Shown: piece by piece, positions 2,470-22,894 of the stretch | How the letters are laid out: each line of letters begins with the position of its first letter | How positions within the stretch are numbered: position 1 is the first letter of the stretch | Origin: Macrostomum lignano | Taxonomy: Eukaryota | Assembly (NCBI GenBank): GCA_002269645.1 | Contig: NIVC01005187.1 | Coordinates: forward strand, 1-22,894 | Direction: 5' to 3' | Length of the DNA: 22,894 bases | The notes under the pieces: generated by a model | Told to the model about the DNA's origin: nothing | Seen by the model: only the letters and a program-made list of their open reading frames with translations | The model's database searches: none | Translations under genes and position numbers: made by a program

Positions 2470-3603
2470 ATGGACTTCAAACCTATTTTGCAGCGACTGT
2501 TCAACTTGGCACAGAATGAAACACACAGCAGTATTGAAGAAGTTGGCGAAGAGATGACTGGTGAAACGGGGTTCCTCAGCTTCAGGCGCAAGCTCAGGAT
2601 CAAAAAAGGATACTCAACAATCAACATCTTTCTCAAGTTCAGCGACACCAGCCGGCAGGAGCTCGGAGAGTTGAAAGAATTCAGCGATCATTTTTGTCCG
2701 CGAGAGTGCCTGTTCTACGGCACCTTCGCACCCTTGCTGGAGCGGACTGCCTCTCAGCTGGGCTTGGGAAGCGTCGGCCTGCCCACCGTCCACCTGGAGA
2801 TGGTGCTGCCCACAGGAACTCTCATTGTGATGGAGGATCTCGGCGAGGCTGGCTTCGAGCTGGCTCCAGCCACAATGAACGTTGCTGAAGCTCGCTGCGT
2901 GTTGAGCAGTCTGGCTCGAGTCCAGGCGGCGTTCTGGCTGACGAAAGCTCGACTGGGCAGTCCGGCTTCGGGTCTGTTCGGTCCGGAGTCGCCTTTTAGC
3001 GACCCTTTGAAATCCCTTACTGGCACTGCTGTCAACTTTGACGCCTTCCTCGAACAGGGCTTTGAAGAGTTCCGTCACAAGTTTGACAATTATCTAAAAT
3101 GCGAGAAGCGAGCAGCCATTGTCAATGCCTACTTAGAGGATGGATTTCTCGAGAAAACTCGAAAGGTCTTGAAAGTAAATCAGGAGAAGAGCGAAGTCGT
3201 AGGCGTGATTCACTGTGACTTGTGGTACAATAACTGCATGATCAGCAGGGACTCCCGAGGTCAGCCAATTGAGTGTCGTCTCATCGACTGGCAGTTCTTC
3301 GGCATCGGCTGGCTGACCTACGACCTGGGCCCGCTCTGGATATCCAGCATTGACAATGCCATCGTCACGCAAGAGTTCCTGCCTTGCGTGGACTTTTATC
3401 ATCACGCTGTCCAGTCCGCGTACGAGAGCGCGATAGGGGAGAAGTTCCCAGTCTCCCAGGAGCAGATGAGGCAACAGGCTGTGCAGTCGTTGGTCTACGG
3501 CATCGGTTGGGTCATACTGTCTGCGGATACGCTGTGGGCGTTCCAGTCGGTTAGCAACGTGCTTGCCAACATAGCCGACGTGATCGAACACTTCAAGCTC
3601 TGA
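2470..3603 (+). CDS. Ecdysteroid-kinase-like (EcKL/CHK, choline/aminoglycoside kinase fold) protein, 377 aa, intronless
   Basis: Motifs E-x-x-FY (RECLFY), IVMEDL, catalytic loop HCDLWYNNCM and metal-binding LIDWQ. Length is typical for the family. Confidence 0.85.
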   Translation: MDFKPILQRLFNLAQNETHSSIEEVGEEMTGETGFLSFRRKLRIKKGYSTINIFLKFSDTSRQELGELKEFSDHFCPRECLFYGTFAPLLERTASQLGLGSVGLPTVHLEMVLPTGTLIVMEDLGEAGFELAPATMNVAEARCVLSSLARVQAAFWLTKARLGSPASGLFGPESPFSDPLKSLTGTAVNFDAFLEQGFEEFRHKFDNYLKCEKRAAIVNAYLEDGFLEKTRKVLKVNQEKSEVVGVIHCDLWYNNCMISRDSRGQPIECRLIDWQFFGIGWLTYDLGPLWISSIDNAIVTQEFLPCVDFYHHAVQSAYESAIGEKFPVSQEQMRQQAVQSLVYGIGWVILSADTLWAFQSVSNVLANIADVIEHFKL

Positions 3604-4198: not shown

Positions 4199-5350
4199 CT
4201 ACAGACCGAAATGCTCAATCAAATCAGCGACATTGTTGAGTACATTGTCAATCCGACGAAGCACTGGAATCATCTCGGCGAACGTGACCAGCCAGGTGAT
4301 GCCCCAGTTGAGCGACTGGACAGCCTGCTGCCTTATCGTCTCCTTGGAGACCGGGAACTCTTGCTGCAGCCCCGTCTTGTACAGAGATCGAATGGTCTCG
4401 TCGTACAACTCCACACACGGCAGGTATTGCTCCACGGCGATGGCGTTGTCAATGCTGGATATCCAGAACGGCCCCAGGTCGAAGGTCAGCCGACCAATTC
4501 CGAACACCTGCCAGTCGATCAGGCGGCACTCGACAGGCTGTCCGCTGGCGTCTCTGCTGAGCATGCAGTTGTTGTACCACAGGTCCGAGTGCGTTATGCC
4601 CACTACTTCACGCTCCTCTTGGCCCGACTTGATCACCTGCTGAGCCTTCTTAAGATAGTCCCTATCCAGGTAGCCGTTGATGATGGCTATTCGCTTGTCG
4701 CACGTCATGTACTTTGCGAATTCGCGGCGGAACAACTCGAAACCGGCCGGTAGGAGCTCGTCCATGCTCTTCTTGGTTGCGGACAGGGCAAAGAAACCGT
4801 CGGACAGAGGCGACTGCGGTCCGAACAGACCCGAAGCCGGACTGCCCAGTCGAGCTTTCGTCAGCCAGAACGCCGCCTGAACTCGAGCCAGACTGCTAAG
4901 CACGCAGCGAGCTTCAGCAACGTTCATTGTGGCTGGAGCCAGCTCGAAGCCAGCCTCGCCGAGATCCTCCATCACAATGAGAGTTCCTGTAGGCAGCACC
5001 ATCTCCAGGTGGACTGTGGGCAGGCCGATGCTTCCCAAGCCCAGCTGAGAGGCAGTCCGCTCCAGCAAGGGTGCGAAGGTGCCGTAGAACAAGCACTCTC
5101 TCGGACAGAAGCAGTCCATCAATTCCTTCAGCTCGCCCGAGTCCTGTCGGGTTGTGTCGCTGAACTTGAGAAACACATTGATGGTTGAGTCGCCCTTCTT
5201 AACCTTGAGCCGGCGCCGGTAGCTGAGGAACCCAGTTTCTCCCGTCATCTCCTCGCCCGCCGACGCGATGCACCGGTCGGCCTCGTCCTCAGTCAGGCTG
5301 AACAGTCGAGACAAAATCGCCCTAAAGTCCATTTGTCCGTTTGTTTCCAT
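4199..5350 (-). CDS. Ecdysteroid-kinase-like (EcKL/CHK) paralog, ~383 aa, intronless
   Basis: HSDLWYNNCM and LIDWQ motifs; colinear with the 2470..3603 protein. The track start at 5368 is GTG; the first ATG is 5350, and the ATG aligned to the paralog (MDF) is 5332. Confidence 0.85.
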   Translation of the reverse strand: METNGQMDFRAILSRLFSLTEDEADRCIASAGEEMTGETGFLSYRRRLKVKKGDSTINVFLKFSDTTRQDSGELKELMDCFCPRECLFYGTFAPLLERTASQLGLGSIGLPTVHLEMVLPTGTLIVMEDLGEAGFELAPATMNVAEARCVLSSLARVQAAFWLTKARLGSPASGLFGPQSPLSDGFFALSATKKSMDELLPAGFELFRREFAKYMTCDKRIAIINGYLDRDYLKKAQQVIKSGQEEREVVGITHSDLWYNNCMLSRDASGQPVECRLIDWQVFGIGRLTFDLGPFWISSIDNAIAVEQYLPCVELYDETIRSLYKTGLQQEFPVSKETIRQQAVQSLNWGITWLVTFAEMIPVLRRIDNVLNNVADLIEHFGL

Positions 5351-6471: not shown

Positions 6472-7950
6472 AAGATTTGCATAGAATTCTCTTGATCTGC
6501 ATAGATTCTCTAGATCTGCAAAGGTTTCTATAGATCTGCATAAAAGTCTCTAGATCTGAATAGATTTCCCTAGATCTGCATGGGTTTCTATAGATCTGCA
6601 TAGGTTTCTCTAGATCTGCATAGATTCTCTAGATCTGCGTAGGTTTCTCTAGATCTGCATAGATTCTCTAGATCTGCATAGATTCTCAAGATCTGCATAG
6701 ATTCTCTAGATCTGCATAGATTTCTCTAGATCTGCATAGATTCTCTAGATCTGTGTAGGTTTTTCTATGCATAGATTCTCTAGATCTGTGTAGGTTTCTA
6801 TGCATAGATTCTCTAGATCTGCATAGATTCTCAAGATCTGCATAGATTTCTCTAGATCTGCATAGATTTCTCTAGATCTGCAAAGGTTTCTATAGATCTG
6901 CAAAGGTTTCTATAGATCTGCATAGAAGTCTCTAGATCTGAATAGATTTCCCTAAATCTGCATGGGTTTCTATAGATCTACATAGGTTTCTCTAGATCTG
7001 CATAGATTTCTCTAGATCTGCATAGATTCTCTAGATCTGTGTAGGTTTCTCTAGATCTGCATAGGTTTCTCTAGATCTGCATAGATTTCTCTAGATCTGC
7101 ATAGATTCTCTAGATCTGCATAGATTTCTTTAGATCTGCAAAGGTTTCTATAGATCTGCATAGAAGTCTCTAGATCTGAATAGATTTCCCTAAATCTGCA
7201 TGGCTTTCTATAGATCTACATAGGTTTCTCTAGATCTGCATAGATTTCTCTAGATCTGCATAGATTCTCTAGATCTGTGTAGGTTTCTCTAGATCTGCAT
7301 AGGTTTCTCTAGATCTGCATAGATTTCTCTAGATCTGCATAGATTCTCTAGATCTGCATAGATTTCTTTAGATCTGCAAAGGTTTCTATAGATCTGCATA
7401 GAAGTCTCTAGATCTGAATAGATTTCCCTAGATCTGCATGGGTTTCTATAGATCTGCATAGGTTTCTCTAGATCTGCATAGATTCTCTAGATCTGCGTAG
7501 GTTTCTCTAGATCTGCATAGATTTCTCTAGATCTGCAAAGGTTTCTATAGATCTGCATAGGTTTCTCTAGATCTGCATAGATTTCCCTAGATCTGCATGG
7601 GTTTCTATAGATCTGCATAGGTTTCTCTAGATCTGCATAGATTCTCTAGATCTGCGTAGGTTTCTCTAGATCTGCATAGATTTCTCTAGATCTGCAAATG
7701 TTTCTATAGATCTGCATAGGTTTCTCTAGATCTGCATAGATTTCTCTAGATCTGCAAAGGTTTCTATAGATCTGCATAGGTTTCTCTAGATCTGCATAGA
7801 TTTCTCTAGATCTGCAAAGGTTTCTATAGATCTGCATAGAAGTCTCTAGATCTGAATAGATTTCCCTAGATCTGCATAGATTTCTATAGATCTGCATAGG
7901 TTTCTCTAGATCTCCACAGATTTCTAGCTGCATTGATCTGTTATGGATTT
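6472..7950. repeat. 20-bp (19-20) minisatellite, ~73 units, TAGATCTGCA plus a variable decamer such as TAGATTTCTC, with a 238-bp higher-order repeat
   Basis: Direct reading. The same ordered run of variant units starts at 6893, 7131 and 7369, i.e. every 238 bp. Confidence 0.95.

Positions 7951-8603: not shown

Positions 8604-8649
<46 letters not shown>
8604..8649. repeat. (ATCT)n / GATA microsatellite, ~11.5 units
   Basis: atctatctatct... read directly; abuts the putative viral terminus. Confidence 0.95.
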
Positions 8650-8905
8650 AGTAGAAGGCATGAGGGGGCTTCTGGGACAAAATTTTTCACTTCCTCCATA
8701 ATCCACCTAAATCCATCCATATAATCCCTGACAGAATCAGAAAAAAAGGGGGGTCGCACCCGCTCACAAAACCTCCTCCATAATCCACCTAAATCCATCC
8801 ATATTATCCCTGACAGAATCTTGAAAAAGGGGAGGGGTCGCACTTGCTCCGAAAACTTCGAACATAATCCTATTAAATCCATCCATATTATCCCTGACAG
8901 AATCA
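8650..8905. repeat. Putative left terminus / TIR region with three ~82-84-bp subterminal direct repeats
   Basis: AGTAG start matches the known 5'-AG Polinton terminus. The core CATAATCC..TAAATCCATCCATAT(A/T)ATCCCTGACAGAATC recurs at 8697, 8779 and 8863. No partner TIR is in the window, so TIR status is unproven. Confidence 0.6.
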
Positions 8906-9118
8906 GAGCATAACCGGTGTCCTAATGTTATGCTCTGAGGGTTTATGCTCTAAGCATAAAAGCTCCAAATCCACCCATAGCATGTTCGAAACAATCAGAA
9001 AATAATCTGCATTCTTCTCCCCACATTCAATCCGAAGCGGCGAAACCAGATCCCCAAGACTTTAAATCATCAGCGCAGGGTCCTCACCCTTTGAAAAAAA
9101 TTAAATTCTCAATAAAAA

Positions 9119-9409
9119 ATGTTTCCAGTTGTCTCTCCAGGTTCTTATTATACTCAGCCCCATCCATTGTACAAATCCAAGTACCGATGCAAACTAGAAT
9201 GCAGCGAGTACATGAGAAAATATTGGCCTGACGTTGATATCAATGGCCCTAATATTAATCAAGCACTTAAATCTCACTGGTTTGAAAAACACGGAGTAGT
9301 CATTAACGATTATGACAGCTACTATAACTTTGCTGAAGTTATAAGGCAATTGAAGTGGCCAACTATAAGGTTGTACCTGGTGGCTTATATCGTAATTTTA
9401 CAAGTCTGA
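9119..9409 (+). CDS. Hypothetical viral protein, 96 aa
   Basis: Same TAAAAAATG start context as the other viral genes; ends 7 bp from the convergent penton stop. No recognisable motif. Confidence 0.5.
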   Translation: MFPVVSPGSYYTQPHPLYKSKYRCKLECSEYMRKYWPDVDINGPNINQALKSHWFEKHGVVINDYDSYYNFAEVIRQLKWPTIRLYLVAYIVILQV

Positions 9410-9416
9410 AGACGAC

Positions 9417-10274
9417 TCACATTCTCTCTATAACAATTGTTAGCACAAACTCTTCCCCGTTAAAATCGACACCAACTCCATCCTCTGTTTCAAACTGCAG
9501 AACGATTTCATGTATCTCTCTATTACTCAGAATCACTCTTTTCACGGGGTTTGGCTTTTGCACAAGCATTTTGCCACCAGCAACAGAGTTTGAAATGTTA
9601 AAAAGTATGTTGGTTCGTTTGCCTTTGAATATCCAATCATGGCTCAGATTGCTACGAATTAATATATTCAAACCTTTGACAATGTCAGCGATATTTGGCG
9701 CCAAGTACATACCGGATATTAGCCGGGACACAGCAACAGTGCCAGGCGCCTGCAGCGGGCTTTGGTCTGTGGCGCCACCATAAACTCTCTTTTCAAATCC
9801 CAACTCGCGATACCAAGTGCCATCTTTAAACTCTACCTCTGCGTCCTTATGAACTTGCAAGATAACTCTCATGACAGTTAGATCATAAGTTAATCTAACA
9901 GGGAACAGTTTATTTTCTGGTTTGCTTTCATCCGGTATCTCAAAATGCTTTCGTTTAGTGAAGACGTTCTCCAAGAAGTAATTATAAGTATCCACGCTCT
10001 GTGTGCTGACAGGAAATATCACAACCTCTGTTGTAGTACGCTTCCATTTGTAATAAAACTTGTTATTTTCCGCTGTCACATTGGGAACATTTGACCACCC
10101 AGTGAAATCATTGAGATAGACGTGGTAATTCGCCTCGGGATCCAAACGAAGTGGTTGCTCCAATTTTTGAATGAAGATTCCGTTTGACTCAGTAATGCGA
10201 CCCGCTACAGTGATTGGAATGCTCTCCTTAGAGTGTGAAACAATGTTGTTTAGTCTTTCGGCTATGGCTTCCAT
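9417..10274 (-). CDS. Putative minor capsid protein (penton, single jelly roll), 285 aa
   Basis: Immediately downstream of the major capsid gene, beta-rich, and carries motifs I recognise from Polinton minor capsids: WSNVPNVTAENNKFYY and C-terminal GVDFNGEEFVLTIVI. Confidence 0.7.
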   Translation of the reverse strand: MEAIAERLNNIVSHSKESIPITVAGRITESNGIFIQKLEQPLRLDPEANYHVYLNDFTGWSNVPNVTAENNKFYYKWKRTTTEVVIFPVSTQSVDTYNYFLENVFTKRKHFEIPDESKPENKLFPVRLTYDLTVMRVILQVHKDAEVEFKDGTWYRELGFEKRVYGGATDQSPLQAPGTVAVSRLISGMYLAPNIADIVKGLNILIRSNLSHDWIFKGKRTNILFNISNSVAGGKMLVQKPNPVKRVILSNREIHEIVLQFETEDGVGVDFNGEEFVLTIVIERM

Positions 10275-10296
10275 TTTTTTATTGAAAAAAAATTAT

Positions 10297-11593
10297 TCAA
10301 ACTTTACTAGACGAGTTATTGATCATATTGACCTTGATCTTCCTCTCAAATGCATAGATAATAAACAGATCAACAGCCGTTGCGGCACCAAATTCTTTCC
10401 GCTCGATATTAGTCACAATGTTAACAGGGCTATTGTCTGTAGGCATTTGTCTAGCAGTCACATCAACACCAAATATTGGATATAGTTTTTTTATACTGCA
10501 AGGTTGTCAAAACAATACCGTTATTCTCTTTGACAGCCAGGTCCGACAGTTCATTGTAAAACTTACTAATCTTGTTCTCCGAGAAATTCCCATTTTGTGG
10601 CAATGCAGGGTATAAATTGTCACTGATCTCATGTTGAATCGATCGAATGTTTCCATGTAGATATCTACCTACATTAGTTGTATTCCTCATAGTGACAATA
10701 ATGTACCTTGGATTGCTACAGGAGCCTTCTTTAATGCAAATATTGTGTCTTGCGTCATTCCGCTCATCTCTGCACATATAAGCTGTATAAGCAACATCAA
10801 TGTCTTTCTCAATCGCCTTCAAGTATTCAGCTTTGAGTGCAGTCTTGGGCTCAATAATTTCTAAGTACAGCTCCACGCTAGTTAGCTTAATCTCCATCGA
10901 TGTATGATTGGCCCCCGACCAAATTCCTCTGTTCCGATCATCTCTAGTCAGTCTAAATGTGTAGCTAAAGTTGCTTGTCAACCGATTGAAACTATTACAG
11001 AAACCACTCATAAACCTCAAAGGTACAAAAATATCTACAGACCTAAACAGCGGATTCTTAGCAGCATCGTTCTCACCAACAAGAGCATAGTTGTATCTCT
11101 CCTTTCTCTTTTTGTAACCAGGGTCATTCTCATCTCCTGTCTGTTCATTGGGGATGAATCCAGCACCGCTCCCCATCTGAATAAAATCCGGGTTCTCAAT
11201 CAAGCACTGGGTATCATAGACCACACCAAAGTTTGCTATTCTTTCCAATTCTGTACTTCCATTGGACACATTAAACTCTTTGAACATATAAGCCCAGAAA
11301 TTACTGGTTAGTGCGACATCCGCATTGTGTAGATCATCATTAGCATGAGCGGCGTCTGCGCCTCCTTTAGTTTTGAATTGATACGTCATATAGAAGCCGC
11401 TCCTTAGACTGTGCACACTAACCAAATACGAACATCCATTGTATGTAAATGTCAGTGTTTGACCAGGACCAAGATTAGTTTCATTCTGATTTTCCTGACT
11501 GGGAACTCTTACCTGAGTCGCTTTGATTGTGCTATCATCACTCAAAATAGGCTTGTTAATTTTGTAGAAAACTGGTGTCAGTGGGTCGTTCAT
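10297..11593 (-). CDS. Putative major capsid protein (double jelly roll), ~431 aa after correcting one frameshift
   Basis: The track ORF (376 aa) breaks at an A7 run (10486-10492). Removing one A continues KKLYPIFGVDVTARQ...DLFIIYAFERKIKVNMINNSSSKV* to 10297. Size, N-terminal ILSDDSTIK, PRYIIV and YPIFxxD fit Polinton MCPs. Confidence 0.75.
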
Positions 11594-11623
11594 TTTTTAA
11601 CTAAAAATAAAATAAAATAAGAA

Positions 11624-12850
11624 ATGAAGCGAAAAAGTACACAGCAGATATCTGAATTGGAGAAGCTAGCACAAGCAGAGAAACGAGTTACCGGGCTAAT
11701 AAATAAGGAGCAACAATCCTACAATGAATTCGTCCAAGCAGCCACCGAATTTCACAAACCCGGATACACAGAAGCGAAGAAAAACCTCGACACTGTGAAG
11801 GAAGCAGTTGATGATATTCAAGAGAGCCACTTGCAAAACACATTGGGTAAAATCCCATCTTCACCGGGACAACCACAGGCTCAGCAACCAGGACAACCAG
11901 TGCAGATGAATGTGAAGGATAACTTTTTTGGCCCCGTATTGGATGATGGAAAATATATTTTTGGAATTAGCGACTGGCGAAAAAATATTACCGGGGAACC
12001 GGCGGATTACAACATTGAAGTGACGAAGGAAACTATTTCAATCAATAAAGGCGCAGAAACTAAACGAATCCCCTTCACTCAAACTTTACTTGATTACATG
12101 ACTAAAAATCAGAAAAAAAGATCCGAGAAGCAGCTAAAAAATTACAAAGATCTTGTTACCTTTGCTCTCGATAGGGACATAGACATTCTCAAGAACAACG
12201 GTGTTTTGAAAATTTTACATGAAAACGGGATTGTCTTGAACAATTGTAAAAAATACAAATACTTTAAACAATGGTTTGGTTTGCCGGATCAAGAAGAGGT
12301 CATAAGACAACAAACACAACAACCACAACCGCCACAACAACCACAACAGCAGCAACCACAACCACAACCACAACAACAACTACAACAACCACAACAGCAG
12401 CAACCACAAACACAACCACAACCACAACAACCTCCACCGCCACAGCAACAAAAAACCCAGGTTGAACAAGTACTTGATCAACTTGACACTGTAGACCCGA
12501 TTCTTGTTTCGCAGTACAAAGATAGAAACCCTGATACTTGGCGACAATTAGAACAGTTCTCCCCAGAACGAATGAAGCGAATCAATGACAGAGTATTCAC
12601 ACCTAGGCTACAGCAACCCTCACCAGGAACATCCTTCTCTGACCAATCATTCGAATCACCACCAAGCTCTTCCGGAAAAGGCATGCCTGAATTCTACAAG
12701 CGAGTAGCGGTTCTTCTAGGAGCGGCAAAGACCGGAATGAAAGATGAGAATAGAAAAGAGTTCGTTCACATCCTCAATAAAATGCTTGAGAGAAAATACA
12801 TCGATAAGAGGGCGAGAGAGCTTCTGCTTTCGCGGTTCAACAAAAAATAA
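11624..12850 (+). CDS. Putative virion core protein with Q/P low-complexity linker, 408 aa
   Basis: Long ORF divergent from the MCP. C-terminal GKG-MPEFYKRVAVLLGAAKTG...EFVHILNKML resembles the GxG...RLxLLxA...G(N) helical domain seen in Polinton accessory proteins. Function is inferred. Confidence 0.6.
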   Translation: MKRKSTQQISELEKLAQAEKRVTGLINKEQQSYNEFVQAATEFHKPGYTEAKKNLDTVKEAVDDIQESHLQNTLGKIPSSPGQPQAQQPGQPVQMNVKDNFFGPVLDDGKYIFGISDWRKNITGEPADYNIEVTKETISINKGAETKRIPFTQTLLDYMTKNQKKRSEKQLKNYKDLVTFALDRDIDILKNNGVLKILHENGIVLNNCKKYKYFKQWFGLPDQEEVIRQQTQQPQPPQQPQQQQPQPQPQQQLQQPQQQQPQTQPQPQQPPPPQQQKTQVEQVLDQLDTVDPILVSQYKDRNPDTWRQLEQFSPERMKRINDRVFTPRLQQPSPGTSFSDQSFESPPSSSGKGMPEFYKRVAVLLGAAKTGMKDENRKEFVHILNKMLERKYIDKRARELLLSRFNKK

Positions 12851-12866
12851 TTTATTTCAAGTAAAA

Positions 12867-13247
12867 ATGCCACTTATTTTCGAAAAAGACATTGACAAAT
12901 ACTATGACAAAGAGGAACTTAATCTCATTAAACGCGGATCTGGACTTTTCCCTGCCGGCCACTATCCAAGAAAAGAACGCTCTGGGAATGGCCTTGCCGA
13001 TTTGATCGCTCAGGGGGCCAAGATTTTTAAGGTCATTGGAGAGAACAAAGAGAACATCAAGAACGTTGCCGAAGCGGCTGGCAGTGTAGCCACAGCAGCC
13101 AAAAAGATTAAAGATACGGTTCATAAAACCCGGAAATCAATACCAGATATTCAACCCCTTGCACCGAGTGCAGATAGTGTCGATCCAGCCATCTACGCAA
13201 AGATGAGAGCTGAATATAAGAAAGGAGGCGGTTTTAAATTTGACTAA
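12867..13247 (+). CDS. Small basic protein with GxG sites and an amphipathic helix (adintovirus 'cupiennin'-like; candidate protein-VI-like membrane-lytic protein), 126 aa
   Basis: True start is likely TAAAAATG at 12867; the track start at 12744 overlaps the upstream gene. Contains KRGSG-L, RSGNG-LADLIAQGAKIFKVIG... and terminal KKGGG-FKFD. Confidence 0.6.
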   Translation: MPLIFEKDIDKYYDKEELNLIKRGSGLFPAGHYPRKERSGNGLADLIAQGAKIFKVIGENKENIKNVAEAAGSVATAAKKIKDTVHKTRKSIPDIQPLAPSADSVDPAIYAKMRAEYKKGGGFKFD

Positions 13248-13282
13248 TTTGGTGCACCCTGACGGTAAAAGAGGTGTGAGGG

Positions 13283-13397
13283 TGTAGGACTAGTCGGATG
13301 TAGGACTAGTCGAAAAAAGACACACACATCCCGAAAAAAGACACACACTTCCCGCAAAGAGACACACACATACACATCCCGAAAAAAGACACACGCG
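13283..13397. repeat. Intergenic repeat cluster: 2x TGTAGGACTAGTCG and 4x ~21-bp CGAAAAAAGACACACACATCC
   Basis: 14-mers at 13283 and 13299; 21-bp units at 13311, 13332, 13353 and 13380. Confidence 0.9.
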
Positions 13398-13443
13398 TCT
13401 TAAATACACAAGTTTAAAAAGAAAAAGTTTTTTTACATAAAAA

Positions 13444-14243
13444 ATGGACTTCACAAACGACTTTCATCCCCACTGGACACGCAATCAGATAAAATTTGCT
13501 CACAACGAGATAATTCCAGGGCACTTCCGATGCATTGTTGTTGGCTCATCTGGGTCAGGGAAAACCTTCAGAGTTTTTAACATGCTCCTCAGACCTGGAT
13601 TCCTCGATTATGACACACTACATATCTATTCACCCACTCTGTATCAAGATGAGTATAAAATGCTAGTAGCGGGCCTACAGAACAAACTCAACAAGGAAGA
13701 TATTATTCAATGTTTTAGACATCAAAAAGACCTCAACAGCAACCCGGAAGTTGTAGCCACTGAATACGCAAAGCACATCCCAGACAATGAAAAATGGCAA
13801 AACATTAAAGTTTTCACTTATGGAGATCCACAGATAGATCCTAAAACTAAACTCTTACCTCAACCTGATGAACTAGAAAAGGGGAGAAAGCACCTGATTG
13901 TCTTCATGACTGCATGACCGGTCCCCAGAAACAGATAGAAAATTATTTCACCCGGGGTAGACATAATAATTGCAATGTTATTTACATTGCCCAAAACTGG
14001 TTTGAACTGCCAAATAAAACAATTAGAGGTAACTGTAATTTGATTCTCCTTTTCCCAACCATACCACAGGATCGACTGAAACGATTTTATAATGAGGTCA
14101 TTGCCCCAGCTCACATTACATATCCAGCTAAGAACTCTAACAGAACAATATCACAGGAGGAATTTGTTAACATATGCTATGAAAAGTGGAACCAACCCTA
14201 TCAGTTTGTCATGATTAATAAGGAGAAAAGAATTTTACTTTAA
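13444..14243 (+). CDS. A32/FtsK-like genome packaging ATPase, split by a 1-nt deletion in Walker B
   Basis: Walker A VVGSSGSGKT. Restoring one G at 13905/13906 gives Walker B LIVFDDCM. Downstream FTRGRH and IYIAQ...LP..IRxN are A32 family motifs. Confidence 0.92.
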
Positions 14244-14259
14244 TTTTTCATTTAAAAAA

Positions 14260-14994
14260 ATGTCTATTAATTTTGCTGGTGAGTCAACTACAGGCAACAG
14301 CACTCTCACAACTTCCTTCCTTGACAAGCGCTACATTAACACTGATGAAGAGATCCCAGAGATCAAACTGAATAAAAACAGACTGAAAGCCCTAGAGCGC
14401 TCCATGCACCAGTTGCAAATAAACATGGAAGATCTCAGGCTTAAAGTAGCTAGGCAGAAGTTTGAAAGTGATAAGCTTTATGTGCCGTTGTTAAACGCAA
14501 CTAATGAACTTAGGTCAGAAATAACTTCGGCAGTCTCGCAAATCAACGGTTTGAGATCGACAGTTAATCTTCTGGGAAATTCCACTGATAGACGGATGCG
14601 TATTCTTGAAGGAGGAGTTTTCACAAACACAGCTAAAGTAAATAATTTAGAAGAGTTCATGAACCAGTCAACAGCATTGCATGATAGAATTAAAGAAAAC
14701 GTCGCAACCAACACAGGTAAAGTAAATAATTTAGAAGAGTTCATGAACCAGTCAACAGCGATGCATGATCGAATCAAAGAAAGACTTGAAGCATTAAAGA
14801 GAAACGATGTATCACACAGTAGCTATCTAAACGGAATGTATAGCTCTTGGGGTAAAATAATAAGGAGGCTTAATCGTCTGGAGAGAACACTCAATCTTCG
14901 TGACATTGCTATTGATGAAGCAGAATCTACTGCTCGTCCGGTCATTTCTACAGATGAAATTATCAAAAAGAAAACAGATCTTTCAACCGGGTAG
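14260..14994 (+). CDS. Coiled-coil protein with a 28-aa tandem duplication (candidate fibre/spike), 244 aa
   Basis: Intact ORF with TAAAAAAATG start and heptad-like pattern. TNT(A/G)KVNNLEEFMNQSTA(L/M)HDRIKE occurs twice. Function is inferred. Confidence 0.65.
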   Translation: MSINFAGESTTGNSTLTTSFLDKRYINTDEEIPEIKLNKNRLKALERSMHQLQINMEDLRLKVARQKFESDKLYVPLLNATNELRSEITSAVSQINGLRSTVNLLGNSTDRRMRILEGGVFTNTAKVNNLEEFMNQSTALHDRIKENVATNTGKVNNLEEFMNQSTAMHDRIKERLEALKRNDVSHSSYLNGMYSSWGKIIRRLNRLERTLNLRDIAIDEAESTARPVISTDEIIKKKTDLSTG

Positions 14995-15027
14995 TTTTGT
15001 AATTTTTTTATTTTTTCTAGAGAAAAA

Positions 15028-15666
15028 ATGGCCCAACAAAATTCTTTATACGATCAGTCTCAATACGCTGAACCTAAACTACCGACAGCACCAAACCCAA
15101 TGGCACCGAATTCGAACACACAAAGCCTGAATGCACCGAATCTGAATGCACCTCAATATGAGCAACAAAAACTCTACCCCGTCATTTCATGTAACTCTCA
15201 ACAGTTTCGACTAGTGGAGATTCAAAAAATGCGAGATGATCTTGAAAAAAATATTTTCCACAACACAAAGAAAATTAAACGCTATGACAGCCACTGTAAA
15301 TTTTTCGACTACAGCAATATGATTCTAGGATCTGTGTCTGTTCTATCTGGATCTGCTGCGGCTGTCTCAACGTTGCCAGTCATCACAGCCCCAATCGCAA
15401 TCCCACTCGGCTCTGTGGGTGCTGCGTGTGGACTTATTTCAGCAATTACTGGAGCATTAGCGCGAAACAGGCGAAAAAAACTAAAGCAGCTACAGGAGAA
15501 GCAAGTAAAAGAGAAAGGGGTGCACACTTCAATCATAGGGTACATTTCAAGGGCAATCGAGGATAAGTTCATTTCAGAGGATGAGTTCAAAACCATTCAG
15601 GATCTTTATGAACAATCAATTCGAATGAACTTGAACATGGTCGGTACTGATGACATGAGTCAGTGA
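15028..15666 (+). CDS. Membrane-hairpin protein (resembles the adintovirus accessory gene labelled 'GasderminX'), 212 aa
   Basis: LYPVI...QFRLVEIQKMRDDLEK helical segment, a ~48-aa hydrophobic small-residue stretch (MILGSVSV...ITGALA), then basic RNRRKKLK and ISRAIEDKFISEDEF. The family label is from recall. Confidence 0.65.
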   Translation: MAQQNSLYDQSQYAEPKLPTAPNPMAPNSNTQSLNAPNLNAPQYEQQKLYPVISCNSQQFRLVEIQKMRDDLEKNIFHNTKKIKRYDSHCKFFDYSNMILGSVSVLSGSAAAVSTLPVITAPIAIPLGSVGAACGLISAITGALARNRRKKLKQLQEKQVKEKGVHTSIIGYISRAIEDKFISEDEFKTIQDLYEQSIRMNLNMVGTDDMSQ

Positions 15667-15750
15667 GAAATGAACTCGAGAAATTTCTTCAACATTATGT
15701 GGAAAGAAAGTCGGCAAGAAGGACAACGAGAAATACACCACAATGAACCC

Positions 15751-16152
15751 TTATGAAACACAGCCAAGAATAATTTCCTTGTAGGTCTTTCGTGTTTTGG
15801 TCATTGCATACAAAACAGTCATGCACAGCTCACCGCAAATATCACTGCTAAGACCTTGGAGAATAAAGTCTGAGCGATAAATTTTTTTAGTTTTTTTTCC
15901 CTTCATATAATTTCTTAGCTCTTCTGGTACTGCCGTCCCATAGCTATCGAAGTAATAACACTGGTGCTTGCGATCGGGATCAATCACCCAGCAAACCCAA
16001 TGAGATCCTGGCTTATCGGTGGTGTCAAAGTTCATGATGCCGCATTCTTTTCTTAGAGGAAAATCAGGCAGAGTGTCCCTCATAAATATTCCTCTAAAGA
16101 TTGGGATTTCCAGTTCGTTAGCCAAATCTTCAAGAAAGTTATTTGTCGTCAT
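15751..16152 (-). CDS. Adenain-like (C5 family) virion maturation cysteine protease, 133 aa
   Basis: Catalytic His (GSHWVC), Asp (YFDSYG), oxyanion Gln (ILQG) and Cys (SDICG) are in the expected order. Confidence 0.92.
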   Translation of the reverse strand: MTTNNFLEDLANELEIPIFRGIFMRDTLPDFPLRKECGIMNFDTTDKPGSHWVCWVIDPDRKHQCYYFDSYGTAVPEELRNYMKGKKTKKIYRSDFILQGLSSDICGELCMTVLYAMTKTRKTYKEIILGCVS

Positions 16153-16205
16153 TTTTTATGAGGTTTATTAAACTTTCTCTTAAACCTAAACCTAATCTCA
16201 ACCTC

Positions 16206-19200
16206 CTAAACCCAATCTCCTAAACCTAACCTCCAATGCCCGAACAGTAGACTGTTAATATTGTCATCAAAAATGAATCTCTTGTTATCTGCACCTGACA
16301 GTCCAATCTTTTTTTTGCTGAATTGTGTGAATAATATGGTTTTTGGATTGTAGCTTTGAGAACTCATGTGATGTCTTTTTGTTGCAATTCAAGGCGTCTC
16401 TGTATTCAGCTTCATTAATTTCCTTCCTAACCACGCGTTTCGGAATTCCCTTTGATTTTTTAATTGGGTCTGACGACTCACATTTTACAAAATAGGACTT
16501 TGCTCTCAACCCAATGAATTCAGTGATTATGTCACCAGCAATCTCGTCCTTCATTTTCCCAATCACTTTCTTGTTAGTGGCGTCAAACACTTGATCGCCA
16601 TTCTGTGTCCTGAAAGATTCATCATACTCAGACAAGTCAAACAAATCTTTTTGCTGCAGCATGTCCTGATAAATGTCTTCTGTTTGAATGTCCATAATAA
16701 AACTGTCTGTGTCAGTGTACAAGAGTTTCATTTTATCCTTGTACTGCTGCTTCATGCCATAGAAGAACTGGTACATCAGACGTTTTGATTCGTCGAGAAC
16801 AGTGACACCTGTATAGATCGGCTTGCGCAGCGTCACCTTGGTTTTGTAAAATATGATCACACCTAAGTAGCTATTAAAGATATGGAGTTCTTTGAATGTT
16901 GGCTTTGACATATTTGCTTGAATAACAGCAGGCTCTGATGAGGTAACAAGTTTCAGGTTTGTTGTTTTCCTCTCATTTTTCAAGAGTCTTGCCATAGACA
17001 GAGTTGTTGGCCAACTTAAAGAGGTTCTTGTCAAAGTCGTTGGTTGCTTTGGTCCTAAATTTGGGTGTTCTTATCAATGTAGGGTTTCATCCACGCTTCC
17101 TCTGTAAATGTAAGAGCCCTGTGAACTTTGGTGACCCTGCAACCAAGTGAGATAAAATACTGAAGCAGTTTGTAATGGATTTTGTAACGTGTCTTGTTGT
17201 TTAGATTCTGTGTTAGTTTCTCTGTATGTTCTTTTTCTGTTCCTGACAGGTGCCAAGTTCCATTATTATCATTGGGAGTTTCGATTATTTTCGGGCACTT
17301 GATGTTCTCTGGGAAGGGTGGAAAGTCAGAGAAATAGTCGTGAAGCTCTGGTGGAATGTAAACATCAACTTCATAAATGGCAGCCAATGAAAAGTCCCAC
17401 TTTAGTTCTGATGAGGGTAGCCATCGAAAATCTCTAACTGGAAGATCTTGACTCATCGCCCACCCGTAGAGATTATTAGCGTCCAAGTAAGTAATGTAGT
17501 TTGAGGGCTGCTCCTTATTGTAAGATTCAATGTAGGGATTGTTTGCTTTTGCATACCTGTTAACGCAAATTGAGATCCCCCTCGTTTGACGATTCGACAA
17601 AATTGTACATGTCAATGTCTGTAAGAAGTTCAATGTACCAATCTGGATCTTGATCCCATTTCATTTTAAGCAAAGATTCCCAGCTAGTGGCAGGGAGAGA
17701 CACATAATGTGCTGGATCGAGGCCATATGCTGTGTACCAGGTGTATCTGAAGGTTTCAAACACATCGGCCAGCAGAAACACATCTGTGAAGAGGTAAAGC
17801 AGGTGAAACTGGAAGAAGTTTTGACAATTAAAGTAATTATAGACATGCTTCGCGTGCTCATAGTCTTTGTCAGAGATGCCAGAGTCTGTTAGCTTTGAAA
17901 AGAATTTCTCCTGTGGTGGTAAACCTTCTTCAAATACGTGATACCCAGTAATATTCTCATAGGGGTAGAAGCCTTTCTTTCTTAAAAGTTTAAATGATTC
18001 ATCAGTTCTTGCAAATATCTTTGTATATGTACATTGTTCATCTTTTAGATTCTTGCTTAGTTCGTCTAGACTGGCAGCTAGAAATTGATATGAATCCTTC
18101 AGTCTTATCTTACCTTTACTGTTACCCAAATTATCCTGTTTAATATCAACACACTTAAACTTCTTGTTTTCTGCGATGCAATCAAGGTGTATGTCTGGAA
18201 TCATGCCGATTTTTTCAACTATTAAATGCATGTCATAGTTCTTTGCGTTGTGACAAAATATCGTTAGATCATGAATGTTGGATTTTAGCTTTAGATTACA
18301 GGTGTTATGCGCTGCACCTCTAAATTTCCCAGTAAAGTGGCAGTGGTCCCTAACGGTGGGGTTTTTAAAATCAGTGCAAGTTAACTGTTTCCTGCAGATG
18401 TGGCAATGAGTTGCTGATAGGAAATTGCTTTCATCCTCCTCAGTCATCATTATTGGAACAGGTTGAAGAGTGCTAATTACTCTTTGCAACTCTAACATTC
18501 TGGCAATAAACTGCTCCACACACTGGTCTCCAAAGAAATAATTATACTCAACAAGTCCTTTTGTATTAATAAAGGCATATGCTACTGAATTGGGGACATG
18601 TTTTTGAGTTTGAGTTTGTTTTTGAGTATGAGTTTGTTTTTGAGTTTCTGGCATGATTGAGCATTCGAAATCAGCATATACAACAAACGGGAGCTTCTCC
18701 ATCTTGTGATAGTTCTTAAAACGGAGATACTTCTCTTCAGCTGAAGGAAGAGAGCAATTGTCGGGTGATCCTCGCATGATAATTCATGCTCTGTTAGTTT
18801 TTCAAAGCGTTCAGGTCCACTGTAATGCTTAAGGCACAAGCGGCAGATGGCAACAGCCTCGTGATGATTATTCAACTGTTGTGAATGAGTCTTGAAAGAT
18901 CTTTAATCCAAACATAGTGAGCCTCCTCTAGTAAATTACCAATCACTAGAAGATCCACTTCAGTCCGCCTTTTCCCCTCAGGATCTAAAACGTCTTTGCT
19001 ACATCTGACCGGTTGAACTTTCTCAGTTTTTTCACTCCACTCAAAGACTGTATTCTAATTTTGTTATTAAACACTTCTTCTAGCTTTGGGATCTGAGAGA
19101 TCGCCAAGCCTCCTTTGTCAAACCTGATTCCCTTCTTTTCACATTCGATGAGATAGTGCTTGAAATAATTTTGATAATTTGAGGTTCTTTCGGGGTGGTG

Positions 19201-20047
19201 AGAGACACTATCATGATGAAGTGCAGAAAGAACTGCCCATAGAGCACAGCAGTTGTCTTTATTTTAACATTTATGCAAGCTTTTTTGCCGGCTAGCTTAT
19301 GCGGGAGATCTATATAAGAGGAGTCTTTAAGTGGGTCATATTTCATGACCATAACAGTCGCTCTTTGAATCCCTCCCACGACCCATCCGGAACCTCTGGA
19401 TGTAAACGCTTCAATTTTCTTAGTGACATCTTGAAGGAAAGGATCCAGTGTGTCTGTAGGGGTGAATGGCTTTGCCTTTGTTGTCATGTAATACTCGAGA
19501 TGTTCAGTGGGTTTTGCAGGCATATAAAACGCAATCTTGAATGATATCTGTAGTTTAAAGGTCTTGCGTGTTTTGAGTGTGTGATCAACAACTGATTGGA
19601 TGCTGTCTTTATAGTCGTAGATGTTTGCGGTGGTGCCGTTTATTGGGATTGTGTACTCTATGTAATGTTCTGTAAACTTCCTCTGTGCAAAATTAATCTC
19701 TTCAATGGCAAGCTCAGACTCTTTTAAATGTATTAATTGCTCTAATTTCTCTTGTTCCTGCTTATTTTGTGGGTACTTTGCTTTTTCACCAGTGAGAGTT
19801 TCGTATTTGTTAACTAAGTTGCGACTCCTCTCTTGGTGTTCCTTTGCAGGATTTTGTATAGGCGCATACTGGTTTGATTCTAATTGTTTTATGATTTCCA
19901 ACTGTTTTTCATAGCTTCCCAGGTGACCAGGGTCGGTGTTAAACTTTTGTTTACATTCTTTCTTAGTAAATTACTTTTGTCTTGAAATGAGACGCCTTTT
20001 GAAAAATATTTGTTGACTAAATCTCTTGCTGGATTGGCTTTTGGCAT
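16206..20047 (-). CDS. polB: Protein-primed family B DNA polymerase (~1280 aa reconstructed) with vOTU, Zn finger and EndoVII/HNH domains; at least 9 frameshifts
   Basis: Reconstructed order: GSGW, SYIDLP, vOTU NKDNCCALW...HYVWIKDLSRL, CRLC..H..C, ExoI YADFE, CHIC..DHCHFTGKFRGAAHNTCN, ExoII HNAKNYD, KGFYPY, ExoIII YLFTDVFLLADVFE, motif A LDANNLYG, motif B KLANNSVYGK, motif C YTDTDS, GKMKDE, LRAKSY, KGI, DNKR..GH. Stop at 16206. Confidence 0.95.
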
Positions 20048-20170
20048 TTTTTCTCGAAAATATAAAAAAATTTTGAGGGTGACCACCCTGATAGAAAAGT
20101 TGAACTGTTTCTACATCCTATCAGTAGCTTTAGGTTTATGAAGCTGGATAAAGTGGGGTTTTAAACCTCA

Positions 20171-20635
20171 TCACATGCGCATTATTGTAAACCCAGCATT
20201 GTGCAGTGTCATGATGGCTTTGACAATGTCAGACTTGCTTACAGAATTTTCATGCACACAAGCATCATGATCATCACAATCATCAAAATCAGGGCAGCCC
20301 TCTCCTGCCTTAATTGTTATACCTTTGTCTCTTGCAATCTTTTGTAATTCTAGCTGGTGGGCTCTATCATTCCCAGCTTTAACAGCAGTTGCTACACCTC
20401 CAGCTACACCACCTGCGGCACTTACGGCACCTGCAATGATTGGGATAAGAGCTGCTAATGGTAGGATTCCTCCTGACTTTTCATCTGTGATGCTGTGTCT
20501 TTGTTCATTACATTGAACTATTTGCTGCACGGGATCGATTTTTACTTTGGCACCTTTAATTGATATAAGACCTGGTTTCTTTGATTCAATGATTTTATTG
20601 AGTTTATTGATGGTTCTGGTTTCAATCTTTGTCAT
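20171..20635 (-). CDS. Small protein carrying an adenovirus pX (pre-mu)-like GG-ILPL hydrophobic segment, 154 aa
   Basis: KSGGILPLAALIPIIAGAVSAAGG versus human adenovirus pX MRGGILPLLIPLIAAAIGA (recalled sequence). A8-ATG start context. Confidence 0.65.
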   Translation of the reverse strand: MTKIETRTINKLNKIIESKKPGLISIKGAKVKIDPVQQIVQCNEQRHSITDEKSGGILPLAALIPIIAGAVSAAGGVAGGVATAVKAGNDRAHQLELQKIARDKGITIKAGEGCPDFDDCDDHDACVHENSVSKSDIVKAIMTLHNAGFTIMRM

Positions 20636-20649
20636 TTTTTTTTAATATT

Positions 20650-21664
20650 TTAATTAATTTCTGTGTCAGCTGGTATCACTAGGAGTTCAGCTCTAGTGAA
20701 TGACCGCGTGGGGGATTTAGGGTTAAAGGCCTGAGATAAAAAGTAATACTCTCCAGAGTCGGAGGTAAAATGTCTGTCTATTTTATGTACATCAAGGCTG
20801 AAGTATGGATCTGTAGCTCTTCTTTTAGTGTCCTTCTCTAGCTCTCCAGGTAGATATAAAAAGCGTAGAAACTCAGAGTTTGTCAGTATGTATGGTGATT
20901 CAACTCCGGTAGCTTAGGGTAGTTCGAGGTGTGTTTTGTGTTGTGCTTGTTGTCTGTTCTATGAGATGTCTTAAGTTTGACAATGTCTTGTTTAATTGCA
21001 TGGGACGGTTTCAATCCAGTCATGCGTGTGACTTCATTGTTCAGTTGCTCTATAACAATGGGGAGTCTTTCTGTCCACTTGGTATAGTACTGCCCCGCAC
21101 TCAGTTTGAGTTCTTGCGCTGTCTGCTTAGTGAATAGTCTCTTGGCTAGAGTTAAATTAAATCTCTCAACGTACGCTTGGTCCCTGTGCAGGTCTGTTCT
21201 TCCGTAGCGAATCTTCGTATTTTTCTTTTCCATAAGGGATTTGACTGCACCCATGAATTCCTTACCCGGGTCGGTCATAAAGGTTTGGGGTATCTGAGCG
21301 GAGAGTTTTTATAAATATCTTGCAGTGCGGCTGCAACTGCTTCTGATTGTTTAGTCTTTAGTGGGCGAGCTTCCTTATATCTGGAGGCAATGTCTGTAAT
21401 GGTAAGAGCATACTTGTAGCCTGAGTCATTGGGGAGAAACAGAAGATCTGCTTGGTGCGCCTCATTAGGTTTATAAATACTGAAATGGGGCCTTTCAAAT
21501 TTTACTGGTGGGAAATAGACTTGAAAGACAGCCTGCTTAGAGAGCCATTTTTCTACTGTAGCTTTTGGCTCCTTACTCAGCTCCATGAGTTTACTAACGG
21601 CATTTTTGCCTACAAAGAATCCTTTGTCGCTGTAGTAGAGTTTTTTAAGTTTCTGATCTGTCAT
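20650..21664 (-). CDS. int: Retroviral-type (RVE, DDE) integrase of the Polinton, two frameshifts
   Basis: HQADL...YALTITDIASRY (D1), MTDPGKEF (D2; frame restored by adding one A at 21284-21286) and YVERFNLTL (E). A third frame gives the C-terminal RFLYLPGELE...RRATDPYFS...RSFTRAELLVIP ending at TAA 20650. Confidence 0.93.
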
Positions 21665-21692
21665 TTTTTAAAAAAAAATTTTAAATAAAATA

Positions 21693-22045
21693 ATGCAGCG
21701 CTCTGGTGGTAAAATAGATTCACATGGACTGATAGAAAAGCTTCCTCATCCAAACAAAGGCTGGACAGTTCCCGGCTATAAATATTGCGGGCCTTTGAAT
21801 CCTCTTGAAATACAGCTGGATGGAAACAACAACCCAAATCCTGGACATGAGCCTGTGAACGAGCTGACTCTGTCTGCATGTGGCACGACGTTAAGTATAG
21901 GGATTATCCAGAGGAGAAGAATCGCTGGGACAAAGAAATGCTTAGGAGACTAGACAGTATAGGGACTTCAAGCGGATTTCGTGAGTCGATTGCTAGGAAA
22001 TTAGTCAAGGCGGTTATTTTTGGTAAGACAAAATTGGGGTTGGGG
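21693..22045 (+). CDS. Parvovirus-VP1u-like phospholipase A2 domain protein (adintovirus PLA2X-like), one frameshift, 3' end uncertain
   Basis: Ca-binding loop PGYKYCGP. Adding one G at 21866 gives PVNELDSVCMWHDVKY (HD dyad), then WDKEM and KTKLGLG. The frame stays open to 22162, but the sequence after 22045 looks non-viral. Confidence 0.85.
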
Positions 22046-22589
22046 ATCGACGGCGAGGGCGGGTGCATAGGGAGAGAGGGTGGGTGCACGGGAGAGAGGG
22101 TGGAGGCTCGGGAACAGGGTTTATTTTGTGCGCTCCTAACAATGAACTGGGAAGACTTTTGAAAGATATGGGGGTAGAGAGAGGCGCTTGAGTCGGGAAG
22201 GGTTTAACTACGAGCGTATTATTCTCAGCCCTGGCCAAACGCAACAGCTGCATTTTTAAAAGTTGAGAAAAGTAGCCCTCTAATCGATTTTTGCGAATGT
22301 ATTGGTAGGAATTTTGTCCATACAATCTTAGGAAAGGAAAGAGTGAGGTTGGGAGTCTTAGCTCGCTTTGCTGGTGTTGGGTGCTTGTGTAGAGCGGTGG
22401 GGTGGCTTGATCGATCGAACGCAACAGCTAGTAACAGAAATTTCGCGTAGATACGAGCGCATGTACATTTGAAAACGATTTTTAGCTCTCTATATCTTCA
22501 CACGCATTGTGCACTGAGAAATAGAAGCGACAGATTATAGTTTTTTATGTGCAACTACTTTACGCTTCTGCTGCTCGACTGAAACCGTA

Positions 22590-22894
22590 ATGGCTTCTAG
22601 TTCATCTATGGATGTCGATTGGTGTTTAAACCTGTCTGGCGAAACAGCGAAACGGAGACTATGCGAGGTCTTATCTGAGACTTTAGTAGAAATCAAGGAT
22701 CCAGTTAGAGCTGCGGAGAAAAGACAAAAAATCGCCAGATTTTTCGGGCTCAACGAAGAGTTGCTGCAAATGGAAGTCCTCACTCTAACGCAGCGGCAGA
22801 AGAAGAAGGAGGCGAGTGATCGCATGGCGGCGCTTGATGCAGAGCGGCGAGCTAAGCGCAAAGAAGACTTCAAACGGAAGCTCACCGCCTCACG
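22590..22894 (+). CDS. Possible 5' part of an ORF running off the window (charged, helical protein)
   Basis: ATG at 22590 with no stop to the window end: MASSSSMDVDWCLNLSGETAKRRLCEVL...RRAKRKEDFKRKLTAS. Absent from the track because it has no stop. No family recognised. Confidence 0.35.
   Translation, partial: MASSSSMDVDWCLNLSGETAKRRLCEVLSETLVEIKDPVRAAEKRQKIARFFGLNEELLQMEVLTLTQRQKKKEASDRMAALDAERRAKRKEDFKRKLTAS

Follow-up and report, generated by a model that had tools for sequence, protein, structure and literature searches.

The stretch analysed here (the window) is the whole of contig NIVC01005187.1 (C5187; 22,894 nucleotides) in the 764-Mb, 5,269-contig assembly GCA_002269645.1 of Macrostomum lignano, and it carries, from position 8,650 to its right edge, a Polinton/adintovirus-like provirus, an identity that a preliminary description had proposed and that Pfam matches, folds, terminal inverted repeats (TIRs) and 6-bp target duplications place practically beyond doubt. 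Taken as a whole, our explanation, which we consider probable, is that the window holds one copy of a young, high-copy, virus-like Polinton family, and that the major capsid protein (MCP) gene of this copy is broken. Integration with a 6-bp duplication, recent multiplication, reassortment of modules and constraint are directly observed among the copies, and the family is a better finding than the window itself, a contig that is truncated and rich in errors and whose copy has a broken capsid gene. Its hundreds of young copies, the constraint on its capsid genes and the swapping of its modules make the family a good place to seek animal Polinton virions, although expansions on a large scale in invertebrates, capsid genes under purifying selection and mosaicism have each been published before.

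The exact terminal 20-mer of the element occurs 485 times in the assembly (247 forward and 238 reverse), compared with 0 for its reversed control. First-look searches returned 596 candidates for the penton (136 scored), 557 for the MCP (109 scored) and 883 for a piece of the protein-primed family B polymerase (pPolB; 150 scored). In a ranking that favours intact copies, an open frame of at least 416 aa contains the MCP match in 102 of the 109 scored cases, and the matches form two subfamilies, at about 92–100% and 83–86% identity; for pPolB, open frames of at least 1,250 aa were found in 3 of the 150 scored matches, about what one indel per kb would leave. Forty contigs including the window, most of them picked by penton score, were then compared, and their 29 distinct left flanks imply that the assembly overcounts insertions about 1.4-fold. 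Both element ends are present on 20 contigs, 14.9–20.1 kb apart, with a 6-bp duplication that is perfect in 15, matches at 5 of 6 positions in 2 and is unmatched in 3; six of seven further end pairs also have a perfect duplication, giving 21 of 27 two-ended contigs. Over penton and MCP together, the nearest different insertion is 0.22–1.59% away (24 sites scored), and these near-identical copies bear out, for the family, the youth that had been suggested for the lineage. TIR identity was rejected as a clock, as it ranges from 89 to 100% and the ends recombine. Read depth over penton and MCP, about 10–25 times that of the flank on a single contig and set against about 40 close penton matches and four contigs of the site, was likewise left unused, since depth is not copy number.

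Selection on the virion genes was assessed in two ways. Pairwise ratios of nonsynonymous to synonymous substitution rates (dN/dS), calculated for close copies with unbroken open reading frames (ORFs) only and over non-independent pairs, are 0.14 for MCP, 0.25 for penton, 0.10 for the packaging ATPase, 0.29 for adenain, 0.23 for pX, 0.24 for PLA2 and 0.18 for integrase. Variants were also counted per codon column, broken copies included, and termed shared when present in at least two insertions. Shared nonsynonymous and synonymous variants, with dN/dS in brackets, number 9 and 24 in MCP (0.10), 6 and 11 in penton (0.15), 1 and 6 in ATPase (0.04), 9 and 10 in adenain (0.23), 15 and 17 in pX (0.26), and 52 and 95 in pPolB (0.14). 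No stop codon is shared; singletons have dN/dS of 0.19–0.47 and include two stops each in MCP and penton. The pairwise values agree with these counts. During the time in which the copies arose, constraint on the virion module was thus about equal to that on the polymerase. Purifying selection on the capsid, ATPase and protease genes therefore argues for spread through particles, and the family likely multiplies via virus particles in an adenovirus-like manner.

Predicted structures agree with the capsid assignments, jelly-roll folds being one of the points on which the preliminary description had made its proposal depend. The MCP model, built from a natural 431-aa copy in another insertion (predicted local distance difference test, pLDDT, 57, a low confidence), matches the Sputnik MCP best (E 3.9e-9), followed by the double jelly rolls of PBCV-1 and mavirus, and it also matches viral MCP models, among them adintovirus entries at 10% identity. 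The penton model, made from the window's own sequence (pLDDT 65), finds the mavirus penton first (E 2e-5; Z 9.6, root-mean-square deviation 8.8, 215 residues aligned) and then adenovirus pentons, the penton having no Pfam match. The models thus predict a double jelly roll for the MCP and a single one for the penton.

Several modules occur in two forms, overall 9–27% apart, that combine in several ways among the copies. Relative to the window, the ATPase differs by 0–1% or 18–21%, the 408-aa gene by 0–6% or 23–27%, and the capsid pair by about 1% or 20–24%; the 126-aa gene also has two forms. Contigs whose duplications are perfect show this reassortment as well, as do three contigs that represent one site and agree with each other. 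In the right arm of the window's insertion, 541 bp correspond at 98% identity to a penton of the second subfamily, and because two other insertions carry the same fragment, this chimera likely predates integration.

The window's insertion was assembled again, beside the same flanking host DNA, on three more contigs (C714, C2018 and C1655), and the four contigs of the locus represent two variants; such fourfold assembly of one locus inflates repeat counts in this assembly. The proposed left end at 8,650 is exact and directly follows an (ATCT)n run. The right end, which had been placed at 22,045, was not confirmed, as C5187 cuts the element: it runs to the contig edge at 22,894, the right inverted repeat belongs to about 2.6 kb that lie outside the window, and C714 shows an insertion of 16,857 bp with a TIR of 698 bp (96.7% identity between ends) and (ATCT)n on either side. 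The earlier label of a near-complete element is thus a contig-end effect. On C714 the element thus falls within the ranges by which Polintons are recognized (TIRs of 100–1,500 bp with AG...CT ends and a length of 13–25 kb), the window carrying the left end only. At this site the 6-bp duplication sits within the microsatellite and is uninformative alone. Targeting of microsatellites was considered and rejected, since (ATCT)n occurs at only 1 of the 29 left flanks, that of the window, and several others lie in different tandem repeats.

Fourteen frame breaks affect 5 of the 13 window genes (one each in MCP, ATPase and PLA2, two in integrase and nine in pPolB), and a fifteenth site examined is private to C714. 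Thirteen of the fourteen are absent from C714, and same-site contigs differ mainly by gaps: gaps outnumber substitutions in 13 of 15 same-site contig pairs, a signature of long-read error, and aligning the window with C714 over 14,261 bp opens 28 gaps and leaves 3 substitutions. For these reasons the 13 private breaks are most likely long-read assembly errors. If instead all 14 breaks were real, the window would be a decaying fossil on one haplotype, a reading that draws on the division of the four contigs into two variants and on most of the element being covered by the other variant only; we hold it to be most improbable, since the window, compared with C714, lacks bases at 16 positions and has 3 substitutions, which is unlike natural decay, and any private break recurs in only 0–2 of 12–29 other contigs. 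The opposite reading, that every break including that in MCP is an assembly artefact and the copy is intact and virion-competent, is very improbable as well. It could appeal to the same excess of gaps, to the position of the MCP break in a homopolymer run and to short-read contigs of four runs, which do not have the window's form there, though they collapse many copies; yet all four contigs of the site, and 0 of 34 others, have the break class near 10,480 (31 in the majority class and 3 in a third, with 2 unscored), and two of the four site contigs have a second MCP lesion near 10,946. This distribution makes the copy likely capsid-dead: it would have lost the C-terminal part of the MCP, the last two predicted strands (residues 390–417), and would likely be unable to build a capsid alone, needing other copies for packaging. 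An intact Maverick in the sense of Barreat and Katzourakis has all core ORFs unbroken, whereas here the MCP is broken in all four site contigs, so that the potential virion competence proposed earlier does not hold for this insertion; for the family, it is made plausible by the purifying selection acting on the virion genes. Frame breaks within repeats of this assembly should therefore not be read as decay without comparison of same-site contigs.

How a family with these properties would multiply may be outlined from knowledge of adenoviruses, virophages and Polintons. A linear genome would be copied from its inverted ends by the protein-primed pPolB and packed by the A32 ATPase into a jelly-roll capsid; adenain would cut the precursors of core proteins at G-x-G motifs, membrane entry would be assisted by PLA2 and amphipathic peptides, and the integrase would re-insert genomes into the germline, with co-replicating genomes swapping modules and broken copies being complemented by others. 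The alternative that the family is solely an intracellular self-synthesizing transposon, its capsid genes being conserved leftovers of a recent invasion that forms no particles, is unlikely. Singleton variants are less constrained, and short and gene-deleted derivatives also lie between target duplications, both as this alternative would have it, and the evidence here comes from assembled contigs; against it, variants shared among 25–26 insertion sites show MCP and penton to equal pPolB in constraint, and a dN/dS of 0.05–0.09 between the two capsid subfamilies reveals constraint there too. Spread through particles, which we prefer, has a stronger version that we regard as possible but doubtful, namely that the family exists in the animal today as a live population of recombining viruses, in which unbroken copies make particles, complement broken ones and re-enter the germline; if true, this would be an animal Polinton with long-sought virions visible in ordinary stocks.

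Several points weigh against the interpretation favoured here. The evidence consists of assembled contigs, with no particle, free linear end or transcript shown, and selection means that capsids mattered during the spread of the lineage, not that particles form now. Choosing copies by best penton score favours intact ones, the variants are phylogenetically non-independent, and the counts for ATPase, PLA2 and integrase rest on 10, 7 and 5 sites; the MCP model, as given above, is of low confidence. Some mosaics may be misjoins (C4346, C5022 and C66): in 3 of 20 contigs the duplications do not match, and at one module there is a conflict between two contigs that represent a single site. As for the lesion, the MCP break lies within a slip-prone run at which three other contigs differ in another way, and C1655, the contig nearest to the window, stops at 11,960 and so provides no test of the private breaks. 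As separate observations, C5022 shares its left flank with C2192, and the 6-mer at its right end is identical to that at the left end of C4651, reflecting a misjoin or ectopic recombination between two insertions; and in two possible-RNA runs (X1 and X12) the coverage of host flank and of intergenic DNA is as even as in a DNA run, which makes them uninformative on transcription.

The closest MCPs in databases are unnamed. Seven of 14 matches (P0001–P0006 and P0009, from Logan, ENA and JGI) are 66–76% identical and lie on short contigs of 0.9–3.7 kb without genomic context, four are 41–44% identical and three 22–24%; an informative name was found for none of the ten clusters checked. In a quick tree of 55 rows, with unnamed relatives only, these MCP relatives and the host copies form a well-supported clade, and a profile search returned 2,500 relatives at E<=0.001. 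A pPolB fragment matched 3,988 of 5,876 candidates at E<=1e-30, with the best 120 matches 31–42% identical; named matches, at 37–42%, are records from ant, firefly, mussel, spider, beetle and snail, a common invertebrate class. Among free viruses, none of 256 pattern matches in IMG/VR was confirmed, and the best 80 of 251 JGI metagenome matches are only 20–26% identical. No published description of the family was found for the host genus in the sources searched, Repbase and most subscription papers lying outside them. The suggestion that the lineage is uncatalogued is thus supported by the unnamed MCPs and distant pPolBs and stays unproven beyond these sources.

Like the Alpha adintoviruses of Starrett et al. 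2021 (PMC8502044), the element combines a pfam03175-class pPolB, an rve integrase, a packaging ATPase and adenain with hexon, penton, PLA2 and pX domains and inverted ends. Unlike them, it has PLA2 and pX as separate genes without a PLA2X fusion: the natural 166-aa PLA2 has no Adeno_PX match, and pX occupies its own ORF. Under the Starrett scheme the element works like an Alpha adintovirus, and because the PLA2X fusion is absent we class it with the Polintons rather than the Alpha adintoviruses. Pfam and fold comparison of the window proteins gave no match to gasdermin (the Beta-class adintovirus GasderminX), and the 126-aa amphipathic protein may be cupiennin-like. Flatworm terms are absent from one PMC8502044 supplement, and the host table may lie in another file. 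Alpha adintovirus PolB has an N-terminal OTU domain (the vOTU domain is described in PMC11071308); here a Cys motif lies upstream of Exo I, in a region with no Pfam match to such a domain.

Vertebrate Mavericks (Barreat and Katzourakis 2021, PMC8097293) resemble the family in size class (12.7–24.6 kb), TIRs, 6-bp duplications and an accessory region near one end, and purifying selection on their morphogenesis genes was likewise used to argue for virions. In contrast, the gene order here is of invertebrate type with PLA2, the termini read AGTAG instead of (AG)3 or (AGT)2, and, compared with at most 287 defective Maverick copies, copy number is at or above that level and the copies are much younger. 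Coral polintoviruses (PMC11131425) share a large paralogous expansion in an invertebrate genome and particles unseen so far; expression was shown in coral, whereas the present family is known from assembled DNA only. Animal Polinton particles are described as unobserved so far in both PMC8097293 and PMC11131425. Gene exchange between Polintons was reported in nematodes (10.1101/2023.08.22.554363), where it involves pPolB, whereas many modules reassort here within one young family; module mosaicism was also reported in 10.64898/2026.10.13.758929. In planarians, Polintons are piRNA-silenced (PMC8532177), and Orthopolintovirales insertions in Rhabditophora have been described (10.1101/2025.04.19.649669) in a work whose supplements may list this genome.

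All 13 genes of the preliminary description are present between 8,650 and 22,200 (Table 1). Pfam or fold matches support those for replication, integration, packaging, capsid and maturation. That frame breaks affect the window's MCP, ATPase, pPolB, integrase and PLA2 had gone unmentioned in that description.

Table 1. Positions of the Polinton and its genes in the window
Feature	Position	Strand	Remarks
(ATCT)n microsatellite, insertion target	8604..8649		same repeat right of the element on C714
Left terminal inverted repeat, ~700 bp	8650..9350	+	begins AGTAG; 84-bp subrepeats at 8697-8907
Small ORF at TIR edge	9119..9409	+	96 aa in the window (most copies: 78-80 aa); weakly constrained
Penton / minor capsid protein	9417..10274	-	285 aa, unbroken; model best match mavirus penton
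Major capsid protein, predicted double jelly roll	10297..11593	-	break near 10,480; 376 aa here, 431 aa in 21/39 contigs
Q/P-rich protein	11624..12850	+	408 aa; two allelic forms ~25% apart in the family
GxG protein	12867..13247	+	126 aa; three G-x-G/GG motifs, amphipathic helix from residue 38
A32-type packaging ATPase	13444..14243	+	Walker A, RGRH; split near 13,905 in the window contig only; 266 aa on C714
Coiled-coil-like protein	14260..14994	+	244 aa; internal 84-bp repeat
Hydrophobic protein	15028..15666	+	212 aa; hydrophobic stretch at ~residues 109-145, candidate membrane hairpin
Adenain-type maturation protease	15751..16152	-	133 aa, unbroken; His and Asp motifs matched, Gln...Cys read from sequence
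Protein-primed family B polymerase	16206..20047	-	~1,280 codons; Exo I-III, Pol A, Pol C, Endonuclease-VII-like insert; nine breaks here
pX-like core protein	20171..20635	-	154 aa, unbroken; PF05829 30 bits
Retroviral-type DDE integrase	20650..21664	-	three pieces here; 338 aa on C714; D, D, E motifs; rve 25.4 bits on fragment
Parvovirus-type PLA2	21693..22190	+	Ca-loop and HD motifs; split near 21,865 here; 166 aa on C714
Variable accessory ORF (14th ORF), start only	22590..22894	+	227 aa in sister insertions; cut by contig edge; no family match

Pfam matches above cut-off on window frames are the DJR-like MCP PF21738 (5.9e-7), DNA_pol_B_2 PF03175 (1.1e-8; 34.9 bits against a cut-off of 25.8), Peptidase_C5 (2e-4; 21.6 against 21.3 for adenain) and Adeno_PX (4.6e-7). 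Window fragments gave matches below cut-off for rve (1.8e-5), Pox_A32 (7e-4) and PLA2 (in two pieces), and unbroken natural sister ORFs exceed the cut-offs for rve (42.7 bits) and PLA2. Catalytic motifs, searched with patterns drawn from general knowledge, were found in the pieces of ATPase, protease, integrase, PLA2 and polymerase. PLA2 and pX, two of the four membrane-active candidates proposed earlier, have family support; for the 126-aa and 212-aa proteins, membrane activity is inferred from motifs or hydropathy. The former, which has no significant family match in Pfam and profile/fold library searches, is likely a protease-matured membrane-active core protein, and the latter has unnamed structural look-alikes at 0.91–0.92. 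The 244-aa protein may, as a guess, be a fibre, and the C-terminus of the 408-aa protein may resemble Polinton PZ.

The slot between PLA2 and the right end holds differing ORFs of about 190–275 aa among the copies. The window's accessory type has a handful of close matches, plus a 35% relative in about twenty more. Apart from one RING finger (C3HC4, E 4e-8) in the slot of one copy (L031:1948-2577, minus strand), the accessory ORFs have no significant Pfam, PHROG or PDB match, and a proposed likeness to DUF3102 was unsupported. Two accessory types have no BLASTP similarity to each other, and a single accessory family is therefore not claimed.

Six short derivatives of 0.6–8.7 kb (L157-L162) are flanked by duplications that are perfect in three, match at 5 of 6 positions in two and are unmatched in one. 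They are internally deleted, comprising ends only (0.6–0.9 kb), ends with capsid genes (3.6–3.8 kb) or an element without the polymerase (8.7 kb), and resemble defective genomes. Other copies (L048, L073, L054-L055 and L023) contain nested retrotransposons with SAP, reverse transcriptase (RT) and tyrosine recombinase ORFs (DIRS/Ngaro-like), as well as RT, RNase H and integrase ORFs.

The host flank of the window includes a stretch at 1020-1735, with a 190-aa ORF, that is likely a presence/absence insertion, because it is missing from C2018 at the same locus; a 26-nt inverted repeat (850-875/1758-1783) flanks it, and the ORF, which has no Pfam match, is one we take to be like the end of a LINE reverse transcriptase. 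Facing each other at 2470-3603 on the plus and 4199-5350 on the minus strand are two host genes of ecdysteroid-kinase-like type (PF02958, E 5e-27), both without introns; they are inverted duplicates, 89% alike over 464 nt, with both frames unbroken. Between this pair and the element, a 20-bp satellite extends over 6473-7925 in about 74 copies.

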